A stretch of DNA of 64,000 nt from Dehalococcoidia bacterium (lineage in GTDB: Bacteria > Chloroflexota > Dehalococcoidia > UBA6926), in contig VXMO01000043.1 in the NCBI GenBank assembly GCA_009841045.1, positions 58,670 through 122,669 on the forward strand, written 5' to 3'. Below the pieces are notes generated by a model that was not told where the DNA came from, ran no database searches, and was given only the letters and a program-made list of their open reading frames with translations. Positions 37,633-59,087 of this stretch are shown one piece after another; the stretch's first letter is position 1; every line of letters starts with the position of its first letter. Position numbers and translations under genes: made by a program.

Positions 37633-38847
37633 TCAGCGAAGCGAATCCTCCGCAGCCCGCCGCACGATGTCATAGACACGACTCAGCGGCACGGATGACT
37701 GTTTAGCTAATTGACGACAGTCTTCATATTCAGGAGAAATGCCGATTATCTCCCCTCCTTCAACAAGTCGCTTAATCTTGACGCTCGCCGGACCGAGCGG
37801 AGTTTGAACGATGACCGACTCTCTGACCGCCTCATAACGTGTCATGGGGGTGACGCGAACCCCAAGCGTGGTTGTTTCTCGGAGTAGCTCGCGGACGATT
37901 GCATCCTTCACAGATTCCGGCGCGATTGCAGACACGATTACGCCGGGGCGGCCCTTCTTCATCTGGACATTCTCAAGCCACACATCTCGCGCTCCCGTGG
38001 CCATTAGACGTTCACGAACATAGTCATAGACTTCAGGGTTCATATCGTCGATGGTCGTTTCAATCATGGCCATCGCCCGAGTTTGCGTAGGTTCAGCGGC
38101 CGCCTCTCCAACGACCAAAGTGACGATGTTTGCCCTGCCTTTCGGGTCTTTCGTGCCTGCGCCGTAGCCGACGGCGTCAACCGTGTTCATTACAGGGGGA
38201 GGGTCAAAGGAGGCAAGCGTTGTAACAATTGCCGCGCCGGTAGGAGTTACCAATTCGCCCGTTTGCTGACCTTCGGCATTCGCGGGCGGCGGCAGTGCGG
38301 GTGCTCCAGCCAGTCGCATGATTTCCAGCGCGCCGGGGGCCGGTACAGGCAGCGTTCCGTGCTGAGTCGTCACGCGGCCGGTTGCCAACGGGAGGCCGGT
38401 GGAATAAAGAGTTTCAATACCTAATTCACCCAGGCCAACGAGCGTTCCAACAATGTCAACAAGTGTATCGGCTGATCCGAGTTCCGCGAGTTCTACAGAC
38501 TCAGCGCTGCCGCCGTGGACACGTGCTTCCGCCTCACCAATACGGCGCAGGATGGCAATTGCTCGTTGAATAACACTTGCCGGGAGATTGGCTTTCTCAA
38601 CCCGATCAATCAGATCTCTCAGCGATGTATGGCCGTGTTCAGCGGTATCGCCACCCTGCACAGCGATGTGTGTTGCGCGGATTCCAGCCCGCGAAGTCTC
38701 CACTGGCGTAAGCCGAATCGGCTCGTCCGGAAAGACGCAATCAATCGCTTCATTCATCGCGTCCATGGGAGCGCCGGCATCCACAAGCGCACCCAGAAGC
38801 ATGTCACCGCTGACGCCGTTCGCGCATTGCAGCCACGCGATTCGCAT
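37633..38847 (-). CDS. larC: LarC-like nickel-insertion protein (DUF111) for the nickel-pincer (NPN) cofactor
   Basis: MRIAWLQCANGVSGDMLLGALVDAG N-terminus. Both DUF111 domains are present. Confidence 0.75.
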   Translation of the reverse strand: MRIAWLQCANGVSGDMLLGALVDAGAPMDAMNEAIDCVFPDEPIRLTPVETSRAGIRATHIAVQGGDTAEHGHTSLRDLIDRVEKANLPASVIQRAIAILRRIGEAEARVHGGSAESVELAELGSADTLVDIVGTLVGLGELGIETLYSTGLPLATGRVTTQHGTLPVPAPGALEIMRLAGAPALPPPANAEGQQTGELVTPTGAAIVTTLASFDPPPVMNTVDAVGYGAGTKDPKGRANIVTLVVGEAAAEPTQTRAMAMIETTIDDMNPEVYDYVRERLMATGARDVWLENVQMKKGRPGVIVSAIAPESVKDAIVRELLRETTTLGVRVTPMTRYEAVRESVIVQTPLGPASVKIKRLVEGGEIIGISPEYEDCRQLAKQSSVPLSRVYDIVRRAAEDSLR

Positions 38848-45867: not shown

Positions 45868-47418
45868 ATGACGCTCGGCCAAAGACTCCGTTCAGGCCCC
45901 CAGTACAAGTGGTTAGTGCTTGTGACGGTCGGGCTTGGCATTCTGACGAGCACCGTTGATGGCTCAATCACGAACATTGCCCTGCCTGAACTAGGCAAGG
46001 TCTTTGGCGTCGACCCCAGCGTCATCTTGTGGGTGAGCGTCGCCTACTTGCTGGCGAGCATCGGTCTCATGCTGACCCTGGGTAGCCTGGGCGACGCCAT
46101 CGGTCGCAAACAGGTCTTCCTGACAGGGTTTCTCGTCTTCGGTATCGGGTTGGTGATTACGCCGCTCAGCACAACACTGCCGATGCTGCTGTTTGGACGA
46201 GTCGTGCAGGGCATCGGGCAGGCAATGATTCTCGCCAACGGCAACGCTCTCGTGGTTGACGCGTTTCCTGATTCGGAACGCGGGCGCGCGATTGGAATGG
46301 AGAACGCTTTCGTCGGAGTGGGTCTGGCGAGCGGCCCACCCCTTGGAGGATTCCTGCTCGATCTCTGGGGTTGGCAATCGCTGTTCTGGACACGAGCCCC
46401 ATTCATGGCGGCATTCTTCGTAATGGGGCTGCTGTTCCTGAGAAATGACCGGCAGGAAGGCAACCACGTCCGATTCGACATCCTCGGTGCGGTGGCCCTG
46501 TTTGGGTTCATTTCTGCGTTCCTGCTTGCATTGAACCGCGGGCCCAAGCTGGGATGGACGGAGCCGGTCATCATTGGAATGGGAACGCTTGCCATTGTGA
46601 TGTTCATTGGATTCCTGTTCGTGGAGTCGCGCCAGCGCATGCCAATTATGGAGATTCAGATGCGGGGCATTCGGTTCTTGCGTGATCACCTGCCTGTGCT
46701 GGAACTGACCCTCTTTCGCAACCGTATGTTCTCTTTCGCGAACGCCACGAACGCGCTCCAGTTTTTGAGTCAAGGTGCAATAGTTATCCTGCTCCCCTTC
46801 TTCCTGCTTGAGGGGCGAGGATTCACCGCGACCGAAGCCGGATTGATCCTTATTACGCTGCCTGTGGTTCGGCTGGTCGTTGCTCCTGTCGCAGGTTGGG
46901 CGGCGGACAAGGCGCCGTCACGGATCGTGTCCACGTTCGGATTGCTCGTGATGACAGGCGCGTATTTTGGGTTGCGGAGCGTCGGCATAGACACCCCCGT
47001 AGCACTTCTGGTGACACTACTCCTGCTGGAGGGGACCGGCAGCTCGATCTTCGGGCCGGGCAATAACAGCGCGATCATGGGCTCCGTCCCGCCATCGCAC
47101 CTAGGTACGGCCTCCGGGATGATCGGCACGGTGCGTCAGATCAGCATGGCAACAGGCATCGCGGTGGCAGGCACGTTGTACGCCGTTATCCAAAGCAATG
47201 AAGAATCTCGGCTGTTAGAGGCAGGAGTAGCAGCCGAGGAGGCGCTCAGTCGCTCAGTCACCATGGGATTCCAGGACGTACTGACAATCATGGTCGTCAC
47301 GCTTGTGGCTGCCATCTTCGTGTCCATAGTGCGTGGTAAGGATCCGCCGCATCGCGATCTCCCGCGCGGCGGACGCGGCATGGGAGCGCCCGCGGCCCAG
47401 CGGCAGGGATCGGCATAG
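45868..47418 (+). CDS. MFS transporter, DHA2 (14-TMS) drug:H+ antiporter-like
   Basis: 14 predicted TM segments. MFS motifs (GDAIGRKQVFL, GLVITPLS). Confidence 0.8.
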   Translation: MTLGQRLRSGPQYKWLVLVTVGLGILTSTVDGSITNIALPELGKVFGVDPSVILWVSVAYLLASIGLMLTLGSLGDAIGRKQVFLTGFLVFGIGLVITPLSTTLPMLLFGRVVQGIGQAMILANGNALVVDAFPDSERGRAIGMENAFVGVGLASGPPLGGFLLDLWGWQSLFWTRAPFMAAFFVMGLLFLRNDRQEGNHVRFDILGAVALFGFISAFLLALNRGPKLGWTEPVIIGMGTLAIVMFIGFLFVESRQRMPIMEIQMRGIRFLRDHLPVLELTLFRNRMFSFANATNALQFLSQGAIVILLPFFLLEGRGFTATEAGLILITLPVVRLVVAPVAGWAADKAPSRIVSTFGLLVMTGAYFGLRSVGIDTPVALLVTLLLLEGTGSSIFGPGNNSAIMGSVPPSHLGTASGMIGTVRQISMATGIAVAGTLYAVIQSNEESRLLEAGVAAEEALSRSVTMGFQDVLTIMVVTLVAAIFVSIVRGKDPPHRDLPRGGRGMGAPAAQRQGSA

Positions 47419-47430
47419 GCCGTTCAGCTT

Positions 47431-48942
47431 TTGAGACAACTGACGGATAGGCTGCGTACGGCCGGCTACTACAAATGGCTCGTGCTTCTCACGGTTGGCG
47501 TGAGCATCCTCACAAGCGCCTTCGATGTGGGAATAACGAACATAGCGCTACCCGAGCTGGGGCGAGAGTTCGATGTCGAACCGGATGTCATCCTCTGGGT
47601 AAGCGTCATCTACCTGCTGGCAAGCCTCGGGTTGAGCTTGACGTTTGGCAGCCTGGGCGACGCGATTGGCCGGAAGCAGGTCTTCTTGAGCGGCTTCCTA
47701 GTGTTTGGTCTTGGACTGGTCATTGCCGCCCTGAGCACAACCCTTCCGATGCTGCTGGTTGCCCGCGTGATTCAGGGTATCGGGTTGGCGCTGTTCATCT
47801 CCAACAGCGACGCTATCGTCGTCGGGGCCTTTCCTGAAGCCGAACGCGCGCGAGCAATCGGGCTAGAGAACGTCTTCGTAGGAATAGGCCTTTCAATTGG
47901 CCCGCTGCTGGGAGGATTCCTACTGGACGTGCTCGGTTGGCAGGCGCTCTTCTACACGCGCATCCCCTTCATCTTGCTGTTCTTTGTAATGGGGCTCGTC
48001 ATTCTGCGAAACGACCGAACGGAGGGCCGACACGTCCGGTTCGACTTCTTTGGCGCAATCCTGCTGTTCATCTTCATGACAACATTCCTGCTCGCGCTCA
48101 ACCGCGGACCGATTCTAGGTTGGTCGGAGCCTCTCATCATTGGCTTCACGACAGCTGCGGCTGCCACGTTTGCCGTGTTCATGTACGTGCAGTCGAGACC
48201 GGACATGATAGTTCTCCAGATTCGCAGGAACGGCGTTCAATTCCTGCGCGAACGTCTACCTATCCTCGAGTTGAACCTGTTCCTAATCCGCCAGTTCTCC
48301 GCGTCAAATGCCACCAACACGCTCCAGTTCATCACGCAGGGTGCACTCATCATTCTGCTTCCGTTCTTCCTTCTGGACGGGCGCGGCCTGACAGCGACGG
48401 AAGCGGGCCTGATACTCGTCACCCTGCCAGTCGTACGGCTTTTCGTCGCTCCATCTGCCGGATGGGTAGCAGACAAGATCCCGACGCGAGTGATTGCCAC
48501 CTTTGGACTCGCTCTGATGACGGTGGCCTACTATGCGCTGACATATATCGGAATCGATACGCACATCGCCATCTTTGTGGTCGTTCTGATGTCTCTGGGA
48601 ACGGGCATCTCCATCTTTGAGCCGGGCAACAACACCGCCCTCGTCAGTTCCGTACCACCTCATCGACTCGGAACAGCCTCCGCCATGATAGCCACCGTCA
48701 GGCAGGTCAGCCAGGCAACAGGCATCGCCATAGCAGGAACACTCTTTGCCGTCATTCAGCGCGATGAAGAAGCGAGGCTCCTAGGCGCTGAAGTGGACGC
48801 GGGAACGGCAATGGCTCAGTCAGTAACCACGGGCTACCAGGACGTCATTACGTACCTGACAGTGCTGCTCGTGGTAGCGATATTCGTGTCCGCGCTCCGC
48901 GGACGGGACCCGGTGCGTGTGAGCGCTACACCCCAACCATGA
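47431..48942 (+). CDS. MFS transporter, tandem paralog of the preceding gene
   Basis: Roughly 60% identical to the upstream MFS protein over the full length, with the same topology. Confidence 0.8.
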   Translation: MRQLTDRLRTAGYYKWLVLLTVGVSILTSAFDVGITNIALPELGREFDVEPDVILWVSVIYLLASLGLSLTFGSLGDAIGRKQVFLSGFLVFGLGLVIAALSTTLPMLLVARVIQGIGLALFISNSDAIVVGAFPEAERARAIGLENVFVGIGLSIGPLLGGFLLDVLGWQALFYTRIPFILLFFVMGLVILRNDRTEGRHVRFDFFGAILLFIFMTTFLLALNRGPILGWSEPLIIGFTTAAAATFAVFMYVQSRPDMIVLQIRRNGVQFLRERLPILELNLFLIRQFSASNATNTLQFITQGALIILLPFFLLDGRGLTATEAGLILVTLPVVRLFVAPSAGWVADKIPTRVIATFGLALMTVAYYALTYIGIDTHIAIFVVVLMSLGTGISIFEPGNNTALVSSVPPHRLGTASAMIATVRQVSQATGIAIAGTLFAVIQRDEEARLLGAEVDAGTAMAQSVTTGYQDVITYLTVLLVVAIFVSALRGRDPVRVSATPQP

Positions 48943-49524: not shown

Positions 49525-50004
49525 TCAGCGCAGGACGCCCCGTCTCTCCTTGGGTGCGTGGCAATACCACACCCGACCCGCAAGAGCATCGCGTGTGACC
49601 ACGCCAAATGCGCGACTGTCTCTGCTGTCACCGCGATTGTCGCCGAGCAGAACAAAATCATCCTCCCCGGTTGTCCACTCCGCGCCATCGCCGGAATTCG
49701 GCCTCGACGGAGCGCGTGAGACATACGACTCCGGCAGCGGCTGACCGTTCACGTAAATCGCTCCGTCTACCATTGCGATTTGCTCATTTGGCAGACCGCA
49801 AACCCGTTTAATGGATACCCCTCCGGATTCCGGTTCCCTGAATGCCACAACGTCACCCCTTTGCGGCACTCCACCGGGGAAACGCCGAGACACCAGAACC
49901 ATGTCGCCCTCCAGCAGATATGGTTCCATGCTATGGCCGACCACGCGGAACCGGAGGGAGCTGAACAGATCCAGCAGGCGTGGAGGATGCAGCCACCAGG
50001 GCAT
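49525..50004 (-). CDS. sodX: S26-family signal-peptidase-like protease, probable Ni-SOD maturation peptidase SodX
   Basis: S26 catalytic Ser/Lys motifs (VVGHSMEPYL, GDNRGDSRDSR), no convincing N-terminal TM anchor, divergently adjacent to sodN. Confidence 0.6.
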   Translation of the reverse strand: MPWWLHPPRLLDLFSSLRFRVVGHSMEPYLLEGDMVLVSRRFPGGVPQRGDVVAFREPESGGVSIKRVCGLPNEQIAMVDGAIYVNGQPLPESYVSRAPSRPNSGDGAEWTTGEDDFVLLGDNRGDSRDSRAFGVVTRDALAGRVWYCHAPKERRGVLR

Positions 50005-50123
50005 CAGAGGCGCCCTGCAATGCCAGCGGCATTCCTTGCCCTTTGAGTGGGGGCTACCGTACAATCTTTCACGTTTGAATCCGCTTAAGCCAACTTGAAA
50101 ACTGGGGACGATAGGAGGAAGAA

Positions 50124-50618
50124 ATGTCCGCACTCAGTATAGCCCTGCGAGCGATTGAAAGGTTCTCACCCGCCAAGCCGGCGAACGCGCACTGCGATAT
50201 CCCATGCGGTATCTATGATCCGCACGCGGCCCAAATTGCGGCGCATACGGTCGTGCGAATGGTGAACTTGATTGAGGATCTGGGCGAGGTCTCAGACGCC
50301 GAGTCGCGCAACAAACTCATACGCTACATCGCCGTCAAGGAAGAGCACGCTGAGCTCGCCAAGAAGGAACTCCGCATCCTGTGGGGTGACTATTTCCGCC
50401 CCGAGCACCTGGAGCAGCATCCGAACCTGCACAACCTGTTCTTCACTGCCATGAAGCAGGGCTCCGCCGCGCGCCAGAGCGTGAGCATGGAGAACGCGCA
50501 GGCTTTGGTAGCAACGGTGCAGGAAATCGCCGAGATTTTCTGGGCCACCAAGGGTGCGGAGACATCCCGACAGCCGTCTCGTCAGACCTCCGGCGGGGAG
50601 ATCGTCTATCCCGCGTAG
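50124..50618 (+). CDS. sodN: Nickel-containing superoxide dismutase precursor
   Basis: Ni-hook motif HCDIPCGIYDP preceded by a 22-aa N-terminal propeptide (MSALSIALRAIERFSPAKPANA). Four-helix bundle remainder (...ELAKKELRILWGDYF...). Confidence 0.9.
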   Translation: MSALSIALRAIERFSPAKPANAHCDIPCGIYDPHAAQIAAHTVVRMVNLIEDLGEVSDAESRNKLIRYIAVKEEHAELAKKELRILWGDYFRPEHLEQHPNLHNLFFTAMKQGSAARQSVSMENAQALVATVQEIAEIFWATKGAETSRQPSRQTSGGEIVYPA

Positions 50619-51675: not shown

Positions 51676-52698
51676 ATGATTGTCGTAATGCGAAGCGACG
51701 CAACTCAGGAAAACGTGGATGGCGTCGTCGAGAAGATTCAGGAACTTGGCTATCGGGCAGACGTGGAGCCCGGCGAGTTCACCAGTGTCGTTGCCGTCAT
51801 CGGTGACACGACTGCAGGTGGCGATGACGTCCTAAGAATCCTGCCTGGTGTGGATCATGTTGTCCGCATCATGAAACCCTACAAGCATGTGAGCCGCGAT
51901 TTTCGAAAGCGGGACACCGTAATCGATTTACCCAACGGCGTGAAGATCGGGCCAAGCGCGCCTGTGGCCATGATGGTGGGACCGTGTGCGGTGGAGTCCG
52001 AGGAGCAGGTGCGGCAGGTTGCCGAAATGGACAAGAAACTCGGCTTCACTATTCTTCGTGGCGGCGCGTTCAAGCCACGTACCTCGCCCTATACATTCCA
52101 GGGGCTGGGTCTTGAGGGACTGCGCATCCTCAGAAATGTCGCAGATGAATACGGTCTGATGGTCATCACCGAGGTGATGTCTGAGATGGACGTGGAAATG
52201 TGCGAGGAGTATTCGGATATCCTCCAGATTGGTGCTCGCACCATGCACGCATTCCGGTTGCTCAAAACAGTCGGGCAGACGCGCAAGCCGGTCCTGCTGA
52301 AGCGCGGATTCCATGCCACCATCCGTGAGTGGCTCCTGAGCGCCGAGTACATCATCAGTGAGGGCAATTGGAACGTCATCATGTGTGAACGCGGCATCCG
52401 CAGCTTCGACGATGAATTCTCTCGCAACGTCCTTGATCTGACGGCCGTGCAGATTCTCAAGAAGGAGAGCCACCTCCCCGTCGTCGTTGATCCTAGTCAC
52501 GGCACGGGTGAACGTGATCTCGTTATGCCAATGGCAAAGGCTGCCATCGCAGCAGGGGCTGACGGGCTTATTATCGAAGCGCACCCAGACCCCACGACGG
52601 CGCTTTCCGATGGGGCGCAGTCACTGCCAGTGGATTGGCTGCCGGAGTTGCAGAAGCAGGTCCACGGTATTGCCAAGGCAATCGGACGGGAGGTCTAG
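51676..52698 (+). CDS. 3-deoxy-7-phosphoheptulonate (DAHP) synthase, type I-beta, with N-terminal ACT-like regulatory domain
   Basis: N-terminal ~75-aa ferredoxin-like domain followed by a KDO8PS/DAHPS-I-beta TIM barrel (IGPCAVESEEQ..., LRGGAFKPRTSPY, KRG). Architecture resembles the Thermotoga type. Confidence 0.9.
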   Translation: MIVVMRSDATQENVDGVVEKIQELGYRADVEPGEFTSVVAVIGDTTAGGDDVLRILPGVDHVVRIMKPYKHVSRDFRKRDTVIDLPNGVKIGPSAPVAMMVGPCAVESEEQVRQVAEMDKKLGFTILRGGAFKPRTSPYTFQGLGLEGLRILRNVADEYGLMVITEVMSEMDVEMCEEYSDILQIGARTMHAFRLLKTVGQTRKPVLLKRGFHATIREWLLSAEYIISEGNWNVIMCERGIRSFDDEFSRNVLDLTAVQILKKESHLPVVVDPSHGTGERDLVMPMAKAAIAAGADGLIIEAHPDPTTALSDGAQSLPVDWLPELQKQVHGIAKAIGREV

Positions 52699-52742: not shown

Positions 52743-52791
52743 GCGCGGGGCATGACGTGAGAAGGCGGTGGTCAGTAGAATGCGTAGCAAC

Positions 52792-52877
52792 GGCAGGATG
52801 GCGGAGTGGACAAACGCACCAGGCTGTAAACTTGGCGCCCTAGGGCTACGGGGGTTCGAATCCCTCTCCTGCCACCA
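52792..52877 (+). tRNA. tRNA-Tyr (anticodon GUA), long variable arm
   Basis: Acceptor GGCAGGA/TCCTGCC; anticodon stem CCAGG/CTTGG with loop CTGTAAA; 14-nt variable arm; T-loop TTCGAAT; CCA encoded. Confidence 0.85.
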
Positions 52878-52914
52878 CTCCGCCCGTACCTCGTAACGCC
52901 TGTGAGGCCGTGTA

Positions 52915-54951
52915 ATGTTGTTTGAGATTTCAGGCGACCTGCTCCAGCGACACCCAACGTATGTTGTAGGCGTCGTATTCGTGCAGAACGCGACCAAGCC
53001 TTCTCCTGAAAACGTCGGCAAACTCCAACGCACGCTGCAAGAGGAAGTACAGACTGTTCCGTGGAAGCTTGGCGGAGCTGGATTGCATGGCCACTCGGCA
53101 ATTACGCGATGGGAGCAGGCGTTTGAGGCAGAAGGAATCAACCCTCGAACCTATGTGCCGTCGGTCGCCGCCCTTGCACAGCGGTGCCTCCGCGGTGACT
53201 ACATTCGTTCAATCAACCCTGCGGCCGATATCGCCAACCTCATCTCCATGAGACACCTCGTGCCGGTCGGCGCGCACGATGTAGATCGACTGCCCGGAGA
53301 TATCACCGTGCGCCTGAGCCGTGAGGGGGACGCGTTCACGGCTTCCACCGCTGACGAGAAGGAACTGCCAATCGGCGAGCCGGTATACGCGACGGGCGAC
53401 GATATTCGGACCCGTCGCTGGGTGTGGCGACAGGCTGAAACAGCCATGACAATGCCGGAGAGCCGCACGATTGTCTTTCCCGTCGATGGGTTCATGGATG
53501 CGACCGCTGACCGCGTAGAGGCGGCGACGCGGGAACTGGCCCTGTTAGCCAAGGCGACACTTGGCGGAGATGTGTCCTACGGCTATGTGAACGCCGACAA
53601 GCCTTCCCTTTCTGGGGATGATGTCTCGCTGACCCAAGTGGATGACATTGAGGCGGCCACTGCCCCGCTGCTTTCTCTGGACTCACCGGATGAAAGCGCT
53701 GAAACATACCCGTCCCCGCCGGCGGATGAGGCACTCGCCGGATGGTCATTGTCAGACCTACTCCGTCGCGGAATTCTGGACAGCGTAATCGTCGAGGAGG
53801 AATTGCAGGAAGCGCTCGACTCTGGACGGCGACTGACCATCTACGAGGGTTTTGACCCCACAAGCACAAGCCTGCATATCGGCCACTATCTTTCCTTGCG
53901 TGTGCTTCGGTGGTTCCAGCTGCAGGGGCACCGCGTGATCATGCTGTTCGGTGACTTCACCGCCCGCATCGGAGACCCCACCGGCCAGTCCGCTGAACGC
54001 TTGCAGCTAACGCAGGATCAGGTAGTCGCCAACGCGCAGACGTGGCGAAATCAGATCTCTCGCGTGCTTGACCTTGGAGGCGACAACCCCATCGAAATCA
54101 AGTGGAACGGAGAGTGGCTGGATAGTCTCACGCTGCGGGACATGATCGAGATTGCCGCAAACGTAACGGTGCAGCAACTCATTGAACGGGACATGTTCCA
54201 GGAACGCCTCTCGCAGCAACGCCCGCTCCACCTGCATGAGACCCTTTACCCGCTGCTGCAGGGCTACGACTCTGTTGCAATGAGTGTGGATGCGGAGCTT
54301 GGCGGCCGGGACCAGATGTTCAATATGATGGTCGGGCGAGACCTCGTGCGGAATTACAACGGCAAGACCAAACACGTGCTGATGACACCCCTCATCCCGG
54401 GCCTTGATGGTCGCAAGATGAGCAAGTCGTATGGGAACACCGTTGATCTCACTGAGAATCCCGTTGATATGTTCTTCAAGCTGACACAGGTCAGTGATGA
54501 ATTGCTGCCGATGTTCATGAGCGTCCTGACGGACACGCCGGACGACGAGATCGACGGGGTTCGCCTCCGCCTGTCAACGGAGTCCAATCTGCAGAACGCC
54601 CGAGAGCGCTTTGCATGGGCCGTCACAGAGCGCCTGCACGGCACCGATGAGGCGCAGCGGGCTCAGAAAGAGTTCACGCGTGTCGTGGATGAAGGCAGCA
54701 TGCGGCAGGACGTGGAGGAGGTCTTCCTGAAGCCTCGGGCAGAGCCTCTGACGATTCTTGACGTTGCGGTTGCGACGGGTCTGGCAACAAGCCGCAGCGA
54801 CGCCCGCCGCCTCATCCAGCAGGGTGGCCTTGAAATCAATGACCAGCGCCATACCGAGCCCACGCTGCAGCTCTCGCCGGAGGACGTGGAGGGTGCAATT
54901 ATCAAGATGGGCAAGCGTGGATTCGTGCGGATGAAGGTGGAGCGAGCATGA
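52915..54951 (+). CDS. tyrS: Tyrosyl-tRNA synthetase with N-terminal B3/4-domain extension (678 aa)
   Basis: Residues ~290-678 are a complete TyrRS (HIGH = HIGH at FDPTSTSLHIGHY; KMSKS = KMSKS; C-terminal S4 domain). Residues ~1-230 align to the PheT B3/4 domain (INPAADIANLISMRHLVPVGAHDVDRLPGDITVRLSREGDAFTA...). A single uninterrupted frame. Confidence 0.85.
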   Translation: MLFEISGDLLQRHPTYVVGVVFVQNATKPSPENVGKLQRTLQEEVQTVPWKLGGAGLHGHSAITRWEQAFEAEGINPRTYVPSVAALAQRCLRGDYIRSINPAADIANLISMRHLVPVGAHDVDRLPGDITVRLSREGDAFTASTADEKELPIGEPVYATGDDIRTRRWVWRQAETAMTMPESRTIVFPVDGFMDATADRVEAATRELALLAKATLGGDVSYGYVNADKPSLSGDDVSLTQVDDIEAATAPLLSLDSPDESAETYPSPPADEALAGWSLSDLLRRGILDSVIVEEELQEALDSGRRLTIYEGFDPTSTSLHIGHYLSLRVLRWFQLQGHRVIMLFGDFTARIGDPTGQSAERLQLTQDQVVANAQTWRNQISRVLDLGGDNPIEIKWNGEWLDSLTLRDMIEIAANVTVQQLIERDMFQERLSQQRPLHLHETLYPLLQGYDSVAMSVDAELGGRDQMFNMMVGRDLVRNYNGKTKHVLMTPLIPGLDGRKMSKSYGNTVDLTENPVDMFFKLTQVSDELLPMFMSVLTDTPDDEIDGVRLRLSTESNLQNARERFAWAVTERLHGTDEAQRAQKEFTRVVDEGSMRQDVEEVFLKPRAEPLTILDVAVATGLATSRSDARRLIQQGGLEINDQRHTEPTLQLSPEDVEGAIIKMGKRGFVRMKVERA

Positions 54952-55829
54952 ACTTCGACAGACCGACTGTGGGATTTCTCCAGCCGGAGGCCACCTTCAC
55001 GCACCTTGCGGCCATTGCCCACTTCGGCCGGGATGCCACTTTCGAACCGATGGAATCAGAGGCAATCTGCCAAGCCGTTCAGCAGGGTGAGATCGAATAC
55101 GGTGTGCTGCCGATTGAGAACCTGCTTGAAGGAACCGTGGGAGCGACGCTGGACTTCGTGACAGCGACAGAGGGTATCAACGTCATTGCTGAAGTCTTCT
55201 TGCCTATTCACCACCACCTCCTGACCAAGACGACACTGGAGCAGGTGACGCGCATCTACTCTCATCCGCAGGCACTTAGCCAATGCAGACGGAGTATCCA
55301 GCGCTTATCTGAGGAGTTGGGGCGTGAAATCGAGGTCATTGAAGAATCCAGCACGGCGCGTGGAGCGCAGATAGCCGCAGCGTCTGAAGACCCCGGGGCC
55401 GCGGGATTTGGGAATGTAGTTTGCGGCATTTTATAGAGTGTGTATGGTGTAAGCGTGGAAGAGGGGGGGGGCGCGGGGCATGAGGCACGGAGGTGTGTGC
55501 TGAGTAAGGACAGATTCCCCGAGACTACGGGTGGGGACAAAACGACAATCCTGTTCGACCTCGAGAATCAACCCGGCGCGTTGGTCAAGGTCCTTAGCCT
55601 GTTCTCATCACGCGGATTGAACGCAACGATGCTGCAGTCGCGGCCATCCCGCCTTGATCCGGGGGCAGGCCTGTGGGAATACACCTTCATCGCGGAGTAT
55701 TTGGGACACATACGTGACCAAGGCTTGGCGGAGGCTTACGCTGAAGTTGAGGCCGGGCTGGGCACACTCTGTAAGCGAATCCGTTTGTTGGGTTCATACC
55801 CACGGAGTTCTATGGGTGAGAACGACTAA
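54948..55829 (+). pseudogene. pheA: Prephenate dehydratase (PDT + ACT domains) interrupted by one in-frame TAG
   Basis: PDT domain at 54948-55433 and ACT domain at 55440-55829 are in the same frame, separated only by TAG at 55434-55436. Conservation continues across the stop (..CGIL*SVYGVSV..ARRCVLS.. corresponds to ..ELYGL.IL....NxTRFxVLS). A G10 homopolymer lies 25 nt downstream. Confidence 0.7.
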
Positions 55830-58435: not shown

Positions 58436-59087
58436 GGGCAAATGTCAGCGCGTAAACGTTGTTCGCGCCCCCATGCCGTAGCGCCCTGGCTGCTTCAGTG
58501 AGTGTCGCGCCTGTCGTCAAAACATCGTCGATGAGGAGGACATTGGCGCGTCGGATTTGTGCTGGATTTGGGACATGGAACGCGCCGCGCACATTGGCAG
58601 CACGTTCGGCTGCACTCATGGCTCGCGCTTGAACACCCGTCTCCCGCAGTCGGACAAGGGCTGAGATAGCTACGAGACCCGTCATCTGTGAGAGTTCCCG
58701 CGCCAGGAGTCCCGACTGGTCAAATCCCCGTTCCCTAAGCCGCGCGGGATGAACAGGAACGTGAACAATTACGTCAGTGGCCGGACCCCATTCGTGCAGC
58801 ACATCCCCCATCTCCAGTGCAAGAACCGGAGCGAGCGACCTGAGACCGTTGTACTTATAGTGTCGAACAATCTCACGGACGTTGCCTTCATACGGCCAGA
58901 CCGCCCGCGCCGCCCGGATACCGTTTAGCTTTGGAATGGCATCTGGATCAAGGCGAGGCGGCAACGAACGACGGCATGACTCGCAGACAAGATCGCCCTC
59001 CCGTCCACAAAGTACGCAGCGGGGCGGAAACAGAAGTCGCAGGGCCGAATCGGCAAAGTCGCGTAGTCGCATTCTCACTAATGGCAA
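58425..59087 (-). CDS. comF: ComF family protein (zinc finger + phosphoribosyltransferase domain)
   Basis: CxxC...CxxC N-terminus and PRTase motif VLLIDDVLTTGATL. Confidence 0.8.
   Translation of the reverse strand: MPLVRMRLRDFADSALRLLFPPRCVLCGREGDLVCESCRRSLPPRLDPDAIPKLNGIRAARAVWPYEGNVREIVRHYKYNGLRSLAPVLALEMGDVLHEWGPATDVIVHVPVHPARLRERGFDQSGLLARELSQMTGLVAISALVRLRETGVQARAMSAAERAANVRGAFHVPNPAQIRRANVLLIDDVLTTGATLTEAARALRHGGANNVYALTFAHET

Follow-up and report, generated by a model that had tools for sequence, protein, structure and literature searches.

A tyrosyl-tRNA synthetase (TyrRS) gene that encodes an additional N-terminal domain was analyzed in a 64,000-nucleotide stretch of DNA, hereafter the window, from a Dehalococcoidia bacterium (Chloroflexota; lineage UBA6926; assembly GCA_009841045.1, contig VXMO01000043.1, forward-strand positions 58,670 to 122,669). 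The gene, tyrS, is a single uninterrupted open reading frame (ORF) of 678 codons with an ATG start and zero internal stops, and the order of the genes around it is DAHP synthase, tRNA-Tyr, tyrS, and pheA (Table 1). An initial annotation, made from the letters of the DNA, had described the product as a B3/4 domain followed by a complete bacterial TyrRS, and the ORF, Pfam, and TIGR00234 analyses bear out this description. An identical protein is present at NCBI under the name 'MAG: tyrosine--tRNA ligase [Dehalococcoidia bacterium]'. The fusion of B3/4 domain and TyrRS is confirmed as real and is no artefact. Its N-terminal module resembles the free-standing deacylase CtdA, and we favor, with modest confidence, the interpretation that it would serve as a post-transfer proofreading site for tRNA-Tyr carrying a tyrosine look-alike.

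Table 1. Coordinates of the tyrS fusion gene, its parts, and the adjoining features in the window
Feature	Position	Strand	Details and evidence
DAHP synthase, upstream neighbour, first step of aromatic amino acid synthesis	51676..52698	+	PF00793 E 7.5e-81, plus FXD domain
Promoter-like site, just 5' of tRNA-Tyr	52752..52781	+	ATGACG-18-TAGAAT; consensus scan only, weak
tRNA-Tyr (anticodon GUA), encoded CCA end	52792..52877	+	ARAGORN; Rfam RF00005, 58 bits
Whole fusion gene (tyrS)	52915..54951	+	678 codons plus stop; Pfam, TIGR00234, motif positions
CtdA-type B3/4 deacylase-like module, residues 1-232	52915..53610	+	Pfam B3_4, PDB matches, AF2/Foldseek
Module motif NPAADIANL with N108	53215-53241	+
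Module motif PVGAHD	53263-53280	+
Module motif RTRRWVWRQ	53407-53433	+
Module motif FPVDGF	53476-53493	+
Linker, residues 233-280	53611..53754	+	Poor conservation, variable length
TyrRS class I catalytic core	53755..54684	+	HIGH 53875-53886, KMSKS 54415-54429; tRNA-synt_1b, TIGR00234
S4-like tRNA-binding domain, C-terminal, bacterial TyrRS type	54736..54939	+	PF22421 E 1.5e-7, PF01479 E 2.8e-6
Prephenate dehydratase (pheA), downstream neighbour	54948..55829	+	PF00800 and ACT

The TyrRS half is canonical in all sequence features considered, and it is predicted to be the housekeeping tyrosyl-tRNA synthetase. The TIGR00234 tyrS model matched residues 280-675 with 331.3 bits against a cut-off of 113.8, Pfam tRNA-synt_1b matched residues 304-589 (E 1e-64), and the SYY_C/S4 region was found at residues 608-670 (PF22421, 31.6 bits versus 27; PF01479, 27.4 bits versus 22.8). 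The HIGH and KMSKS motifs and the S4 domain named in the initial annotation are present, the two motifs at residues 321-324 and 501-505, and the core contains the tyrosine-pocket motifs YEGFDPT, IGDPT, YPLLQGYD, and GGRDQ. The closest solved relative of this half is the T. thermophilus TyrRS (1h3e; E 6e-76). Residues were numbered as in the B. stearothermophilus TyrRS, with the numbering of the reference sequence checked against the known Y34, H45, H48, and D78; on this basis Y34, D78, Y169, Q173, D176, Q195, and the lysines and histidines of HIGH and KMSKS do not vary among 106 fused and 9 unfused relatives. A relaxed tyrosine pocket was not found in the fused TyrRSs, and no alignment column separates the 106 fused from the 9 unfused proteins. 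Since the tyrosine pocket is canonical, the known error spectrum of TyrRS would apply to this enzyme. We infer tyrosylation of tRNA-Tyr from the family score and motifs, from a tyrosine-specific T-box at a fused orthologue, and from the synteny shared with unfused tyrS genes.

The N-terminal module matched Pfam B3_4 (PF03483) at residues 66-197 far above threshold (74.5 bits, gathering threshold 29.3; E 1e-20), and the peptides quoted in support of this assignment, NPAADIANL and FPVDGF among them, were found in the protein. The B3/4 fold is thus genuine, but its classification as the type found in the β subunit of phenylalanyl-tRNA synthetase (PheRS), PheT, did not hold. In a phmmer search of PDB sequences, the module matched the two structures of CtdA, 9f7e (E 4e-12) and 9mkl (E 1e-9), and PheRS β chains at E 1e-3; the sequence alignment with CtdA begins near residue 45 in both proteins. 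An AlphaFold2 (AF2) model of residues 1-232, with a predicted local distance difference test (pLDDT) value of 84.7 and a predicted template modelling score (pTM) of 0.87, was aligned by Foldseek with CtdA at template modelling (TM) scores of 0.80-0.82 (E 1e-16) over 229-232 columns, which is the whole length, whereas the TM score with PheRS β was ~0.5. All matches of the fold search at E <= 1e-3 were CtdA or PheRS β chains. The PheRS β model TIGR00472 reached 26.4 bits against a cut-off of 402.65, across 75 residues only, and Pfam identified no other PheT domains in the protein. Because the module superposes on CtdA over its whole length and on PheRS β only at ~0.5, it is, as predicted from sequence and model, a complete CtdA-like B3/4 deacylase of the free-standing type joined to TyrRS, rather than a fragment or a PheT-type domain. 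An editing or deacylase role, as proposed in the initial annotation, is the most reasonable reading.

CtdA is a free-standing canavanyl-tRNA-Arg deacylase (PDB 9F7E, 9MKL; Hauth 2023, PMC10018355; Maldonado 2025, PMC12449066), and the members of its family are aminoacyl-tRNA deacylases for a non-protein amino acid. Module and CtdA share the B3/4 fold, a length of ~230 residues, and the equivalents of N105, G116, and Q173, but they are only 22-23% identical, the module is fused within a 678-residue protein, and its partner is TyrRS instead of the arginine system. In CtdA, N105, G116, and Q173 are essential, and the strictly conserved C166 modulates canavanine/arginine specificity (PMC12449066). 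N105 and G116 correspond to N108 and G119 of the protein in the window, both of which are invariant in 18/18 diverse TyrRS fusions. C166 is replaced by Thr166, which lies in an RTRRW motif present in 104/106 fused proteins, and further pocket changes from CtdA to the module are GGEN to GAHD, WNW to WVW, and (I)LES to (P)VDG. The resulting pocket signature, GAHD / RTRRWVWRQ / FPVDGF, is in sequence distinct from that of the canavanine-specific CtdA, and these differences together with the TyrRS partner argue against the hydrolysis of canavanyl-tRNA-Arg by the module.

This signature is maintained by selection. Among 106 fused homologues, 103 carry GAHD or GCHD, 103 carry RTRRW[VI]WR[QLM], and 92 carry FP[IV]DGF. 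Comparison across homologues at 40-90% identity showed that the module is better conserved than the C-terminal domain of the TyrRS (e.g., 44% vs 34% and 40% vs 28% identity), whereas linker identity was 7-30% and its length falls from 48 to ~13 residues in other clades, among them one with fused proteins of 638 amino acids. The module is thus under purifying selection and the linker not. The full-length AF2 model (mean pLDDT 83.7, pTM 0.56) contains confidently predicted domains and pLDDT values <50 at residues 256-263, which points to the linker as a flexible tether.

The architecture had been considered unrecognised in the initial annotation, but it was found to be widespread in the Chloroflexota, and it is present in public databases as plain 'tyrosine--tRNA ligase'. 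A B3_4 domain combined with TyrRS was identified in >100 protein clusters (90% identity clustering), with sequences down to 39% identity to the query, a recurrence far beyond chance. A scan for the N-terminal domain in one genome per species found 215 relatives, from which 80 loci were retained, and at 37 of these 80 species-representative loci the B3/4 domain is encoded in the same ORF as TyrRS. Several of the fused loci come from long contigs (1.8-2.5 Mb) or closed chromosomes (e.g., OZ241912.1, OY762213.1, and OZ242203.1), and all named carriers of the fused form belong to the Chloroflexota (Dehalococcoidia, Chloroflexia, Ca. Chlorohelix, and others). One close homologue, the 88% identical P0049, seemed to be unfused; its gene is on a 6x-coverage contig, and because the frame jumps 2>1>2 and the pieces jointly span residues 1-678, the split is an assembly artefact.

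Outside the fusions, proteins of ~233 amino acids with the same motifs (IN..VD..N, P.GAHD, GE.VY, RTRRW.WRQ, FPIDGF) exist in free-standing form in Bacillota (Clostridia, Moorellales, Desulforudis), Thermomicrobia, Acidobacteriota, Armatimonadota, and Leucobacter. Cultured strains with a free-standing homologue are Clostridium carboxidivorans P7 (L048), C. drakei SL1 (L071), Desulforudis sp. Tu-874 (L077), and Leucobacter salsicius M1-8 (L075). An exhaustive profile search of 1.84 billion representative proteins retrieved 5011 relatives, with E <= 1e-30 for 708, and the best 150 relatives are mostly free-standing, with ~15 TyrRS fusions. A clade designated 'CtdA-2' was described in Chloroflexi, Bacillota, and archaea, with ~20% identity to CtdA-1 and without C166 (PMC12449066). 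The free-standing relatives of the module probably are this clade, to which they were matched by its description only: they share its taxonomic range, the ~20% identity to CtdA-1, the equivalents of N105 and G116, and the absence of C166. Its substrate is, according to the authors of the study, 'yet to be determined', and since the proteins in that study were restricted to lengths of 180-260 residues, synthetase fusions, which it does not mention, were filtered out by design (PMC12449066).

TyrRS is not the only synthetase to which the module was found to be attached. Arginyl-tRNA synthetase (ArgRS) is the partner in 6 representatives (P0130, P0194, P0204, P0223, P0235, and P0245), one of which carries two tandem modules, and one ArgRS-fusion cluster has five full-length members on separate contigs. 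Lysyl-tRNA synthetase (LysRS) is the partner in three further proteins, of which one is a class I enzyme (P0181) and two are class II enzymes (P0197 and P0242), with the module N-terminal in one and C-terminal in the other. All ArgRS and LysRS partners scored above the NCBIfam cut-offs in searches with Pfam and NCBIfam. Clear differences in the pocket emerge between these groups. The ArgRS and LysRS fusions share with CtdA the canavanine-type motifs GGE(N/D) and CRRWNWR(Q/E), whereas the TyrRS fusions have G(A)HD and RTRRW(V/I)WR. Position 170 is N in 9/9 ArgRS and LysRS fusions and in both CtdA structures but V, I, L, or A in 18/18 TyrRS fusions. At position 121, the ArgRS and LysRS fusions and CtdA have E or D and the TyrRS fusions mostly H, and at position 189 they have I, V, or Y and mostly P, respectively. 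The pocket residues thus track the synthetase partner, which is the strongest computational argument for the recognition of a side chain related to that partner. The ArgRS fusions fit the proven CtdA substrate, canavanyl-tRNA-Arg.

The distribution of the module among orthologous loci provides information on its history. Related genomes were found to contain many fused orthologues but also unfused ones: a sister Dehalococcoidia lineage (CAYOHH01, GCA_964403715.1) has the identical synteny, including tRNA-Tyr, with an unfused TyrRS of 414-417 amino acids. In a tree of the TyrRS core, one clade is entirely fused (19/19; 100% bootstrap), and in a second clade (81%) eight unfused sequences are at the base, with the 13 fused sequences of the query's group nested inside. 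This tree, with the orthologous locus either fused or unfused, implies at least two events of module gain or loss, and because the unfused sister lineage keeps the same synteny, the module is an accessory part of the enzyme. Neighbor-joining trees of the module domain had weak deep nodes (10-31% bootstrap) and were not used to define partner-specific clades or to count fusion events. A second module subtype fused to TyrRS (P0111, P0160, and P0172) is characterized by GGDD/GADD, (L/M)CR(C/A)W.W, and N.D..PP and groups with the free-standing P0153-P0155, P0170, and P0173. In the domain tree, a node with 81% bootstrap unites P0111, P0160, and the free P0154, so that a free-standing protein is placed between two TyrRS-fused ones, which hints at independent fusion or fission events in this subtype. 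Repeated gain or loss of the module at an orthologous locus is the usual behavior of editing modules that occur both free and fused, by analogy with AlaX and YbaK/INS.

The initial annotation had also drawn attention to the tRNA-Tyr(GUA) gene 38 nt upstream of the fusion. ARAGORN and Rfam place the tRNA directly upstream, with its first nucleotide at 52792, the start coordinate given in that annotation, but the gap between its encoded CCA end and the ATG of tyrS is 37 nt. In the query clade (L001-L020), tRNA-Tyr is located ~39 nt upstream of the fused gene in all loci, and DAHP synthase adjoins the locus in fused and unfused relatives alike. Since the unfused sister lineage shares this synteny, the adjacency of tRNA-Tyr is unrelated to the fusion, and other fused clades have a tyrosine T-box instead. 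The tRNA-Tyr sequences of fused and unfused lineages are near-identical, and this comparison revealed no adaptation of tRNA-Tyr in the fused lineages. A full-length T-box match with a UAC (Tyr) specifier was found upstream of a fused tyrS at L026 (9662-9929; 67 bits, gathering score 93; E 3e-14). A T-box-core motif is present upstream of the fused gene in five further loci; in L031, L049, L054, and L061 it is 90-155 nt upstream. At the Rfam gathering score, zero leaders were detected at nine fused loci, and the L026 T-box appears only when an E-value threshold is used. Divergent T-boxes of Chloroflexota that fall below the gathering threshold would escape default annotation. In the window, Rfam identified no T-box or other leader at E <= 1. 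Taken together, the tyrosine T-box and the co-located tRNA-Tyr indicate that the regulation of the fused gene is that of a genuine tyrS. No terminator-like site was found between tRNA-Tyr and tyrS, and the TGA stop of tyrS overlaps the ATG of pheA (ATGA). A transcript comprising tRNA-Tyr, tyrS, and pheA could begin at the weak promoter-like site upstream of tRNA-Tyr.

In the mechanism that we favor, a CtdA-family deacylase module is joined to the N terminus of TyrRS through a flexible linker. TyrRS would charge tRNA-Tyr, and either the bound 3' end or the released mischarged tRNA-Tyr would sample the tethered pocket, which would hydrolyze the ester bond to a tyrosine look-alike but leave Tyr-tRNA-Tyr intact. 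The likeliest substrates would be non-protein analogues that the canonical TyrRS pocket accepts, such as L-DOPA, ring-substituted tyrosines, and azatyrosine. These three are known TyrRS substrates. Another candidate for the fused form would be Phe-tRNA-Tyr, in a classical double-sieve arrangement. A non-protein tyrosine analogue is the more economical guess, because the free-standing relatives with the same pocket must spare cognate aminoacyl-tRNAs. The free-standing proteins of many anaerobes that have the same pocket type may do the same job in trans, and the fusion can be regarded as a 'Rosetta stone' from which we infer tRNA-Tyr as the client of this uncharacterised free-standing subfamily. 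Cis editing is physically feasible, since tRNA-Tyr is reportedly edited in cis by an E. coli TyrRS that was engineered to carry the B3/4 domain of PheRS (Oki 2008; Richardson & First 2016; via PMC6540133). The design, a B3/4 domain on a bacterial TyrRS, is the same as that of the natural protein. However, the chimeras are artificial, and their archaeal PheRS domain removes the cognate L-Tyr in favor of an analogue, whereas the natural module must spare Tyr.

A more general proposal is that the CtdA-type B3/4 domain is a portable proofreading cassette that was repeatedly attached to TyrRS, ArgRS, and class I and II LysRS, with its pocket tuned to each partner; that the Chloroflexota TyrRS edits a tyrosine analogue; and that the free 'RTRRW/GAHD' subfamily, probably CtdA-2, is a trans-editing factor for tRNA-Tyr. 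This wider claim is advanced tentatively, as we give it a little less than an even chance. It has parallels in AlaX (AlaRS/ThrRS) and in YbaK/ProXp (INS domain of ProRS), in which one deacylase fold likewise occurs free in trans and fused in cis, with specificity differing between subfamilies, although the fold is a different one. For B3/4, the combination of free and fused forms was previously known only as PheRS plus the free CtdA.

Several observations weigh against a proofreading function. The tyrosine pocket of the fused TyrRSs is not relaxed in comparison with that of the unfused relatives, so that a greater demand for proofreading is not apparent, and the unfused sister lineages manage without the module. 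TyrRS has classically been considered accurate enough without an editing domain, and ArgRS and LysRS, too, are regarded as synthetases that do not edit. The query has kept the equivalent of Q173, which is essential in CtdA, but roughly half of the fused proteins have L or M at this position. In the full-length AF2 model, with its pTM of 0.56, the module is not docked at a fixed site on TyrRS. The grouping of modules by partner in the domain tree is supported by bootstrap values of just 10-31%. The neighbours of the free-standing homologues are heterogeneous, were found to include neither tyrS nor genes for analogue biosynthesis, and offer no tyrosine-related clue; a YbaK/ProX-like protein was encountered at 4 of these loci and a hisC-like aminotransferase at 3.

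Among the alternatives, the one that survives best, although we regard it as unlikely, is that the module is non-hydrolytic and acts as an RNA- or tRNA-binding, docking, or regulatory appendage, which might increase the affinity for the acceptor end of tRNA-Tyr, hand off the charged tRNA, or tether the enzyme to some partner, such as the ribosome. There are B3/4 folds with roles other than editing, and the fold search also returned human LRRC47 on the 40S subunit (8xp3, rank 34). The catalytic residue is not strictly defined for this fold, and the variation at the Q173 equivalent and the lack of a predicted fixed interdomain geometry would suit such a role as well. However, conservation within the module is highest at the residues that line the CtdA pocket, and these residues differ according to the synthetase partner, a pattern to be expected where an amino acid is recognized but not in a generic RNA binder. 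In addition, N108, the equivalent of the essential N105 of CtdA, is invariant, and the ArgRS fusions keep the canavanine-type pocket.

Far less probable is a PheRS-like specificity, in which the module would hydrolyze Tyr-tRNA-Phe or m-Tyr-tRNA-Phe in trans as a backup of PheRS; post-transfer hydrolysis of these two substrates is the function of the PheT B3/4 domain. Module and PheT domain share PF03483, the fold, and the equivalent of Asn254, and the gene is located between genes for Phe and Tyr biosynthesis. The comparison of editing sites that had been called for was limited to the E. coli PheT residues R244, N254, H265, and F267, as G318 and E334 fall outside the aligned stretch. Of these, N254 is kept as N108, but G119 and H121 occupy the positions of H265 and F267. 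R244, a contact to the tRNA backbone (PMC12449066), corresponds to R98 in the query clade only, and R98 is not conserved in the other fused clades. The relationship to PheT is distant, as indicated by the scores given above, and the multidomain context of PheT is missing. Furthermore, CtdA, including mutants that mimic the PheRS pocket, failed to replace PheRS editing in vivo (PMC12449066), and a tyrosine hydrolase tethered to TyrRS would destroy Tyr-tRNA-Tyr, as the engineered chimera reportedly does (PMC6540133). The hydrolysis of Tyr-tRNA(Phe), which the initial annotation had considered, is thus unlikely both from the replacement of H265 and F267 and from the threat that it would pose to the enzyme's own product.

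Marginally weaker still is the possibility that the module removes D-tyrosine from tRNA-Tyr as a functional analogue of D-aminoacyl-tRNA deacylases. D-Tyr is reportedly the best documented natural error of TyrRS, and the tether would place the activity where this error arises. However, a pocket that tracks the partner argues for recognition of the side chain and not of chirality, and free-standing homologues occur in Bacillota, which usually have dtd. Weakest by a wide margin is an artefact in which an assembly or sequencing error merged two adjacent genes into one long ORF: a corrupted stretch does lie ~450 nt downstream, in pheA, and the gene is split on one homologous contig, but the split copy is the frameshifted 6x-coverage contig mentioned above, a search for a stop or frameshift between the two parts found none in the window, and the intact fused ORF is present in dozens of independent assemblies, closed chromosomes included, so that this explanation is already effectively refuted.

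A full-text literature search, the coverage of which was incomplete so that a prior mention is possible, yielded no description of a TyrRS-, ArgRS-, or LysRS-B3/4 architecture. In AARS Online (2024), Edit-LIV and Edit-AT are the only editing domains recorded in more than one synthetase family, and B3/4 is not among these shared domains. Synthetases that carry an additional deacylase module, the family of which also has free-standing members, are of a known kind, and, in the literature searched, the TyrRS, ArgRS, and LysRS versions with B3/4 are apparently undescribed. If the proofreading function is correct, post-transfer proofreading would extend to synthetase families thought to lack it (TyrRS, ArgRS, and LysRS), and the free-standing CtdA-2-like proteins would gain a functional lead, with tRNA-Tyr as their client. 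It would also follow that bacteria of anaerobic and subsurface habitats are genuinely threatened by some tyrosine look-alike or natural antimetabolite. The TyrRS-editing-domain chimera engineered in 2008 would have had a natural counterpart, which may serve genetic-code expansion. The hypothesis is open to standard deacylation assays, for which the sequences of both the protein and tRNA-Tyr are available in the window.

Some further observations concern the free-standing relatives and the surroundings of the fusion gene. At four loci of Bacillota type (L024, L028, L036, and L080), a protein of 105-159 amino acids that is presumably YbaK/ProX-like, and would thus belong to another trans-editing family, as assigned by reading the sequence and without a profile search, is encoded within ~1.5 kb of a free RTRRW-type B3/4 gene; a YbaK/ProX-like protein and a B3/4 protein may form a small gene cluster for tRNA quality control. 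In P0156, a protein of 2002 amino acids, the profile of the N-terminal domain matches at 37 short, separate places, and this protein may thus consist of repeats of a fragment from the C-terminal region of B3/4.

Downstream of the fusion, pheA was called as two ORFs owing to an in-frame TAG (55434-55436) within a patch of 93 nt (55404-55496), in which 46 positions differ from orthologues that are otherwise ~88% identical in DNA. The patch is transversion-rich and C-poor (A18 C8 G44 T23), has no indel, and includes a run of nine G. The gene is intact, with 293 amino acids, in 20 relatives, and the patch has the appearance of hypermutation or of a local corruption of the sequence. Upstream, two tandem paralogous MFS transporters of ~500 amino acids each are encoded on the plus strand (45868-47418 and 47431-48942), and most close relatives have this pair as well, at a distance of ~4-6 kb upstream of the fusion. 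The window also contains a nickel superoxide dismutase gene (50124-50618, plus strand; PF09055) that is adjoined by a divergent gene for an S26 signal-peptidase-like protein (49525-50133, minus strand), corresponding to the usual sodN-sodX maturation pair, and a LarC-like nickel-insertion protein is encoded at 37633-38847.

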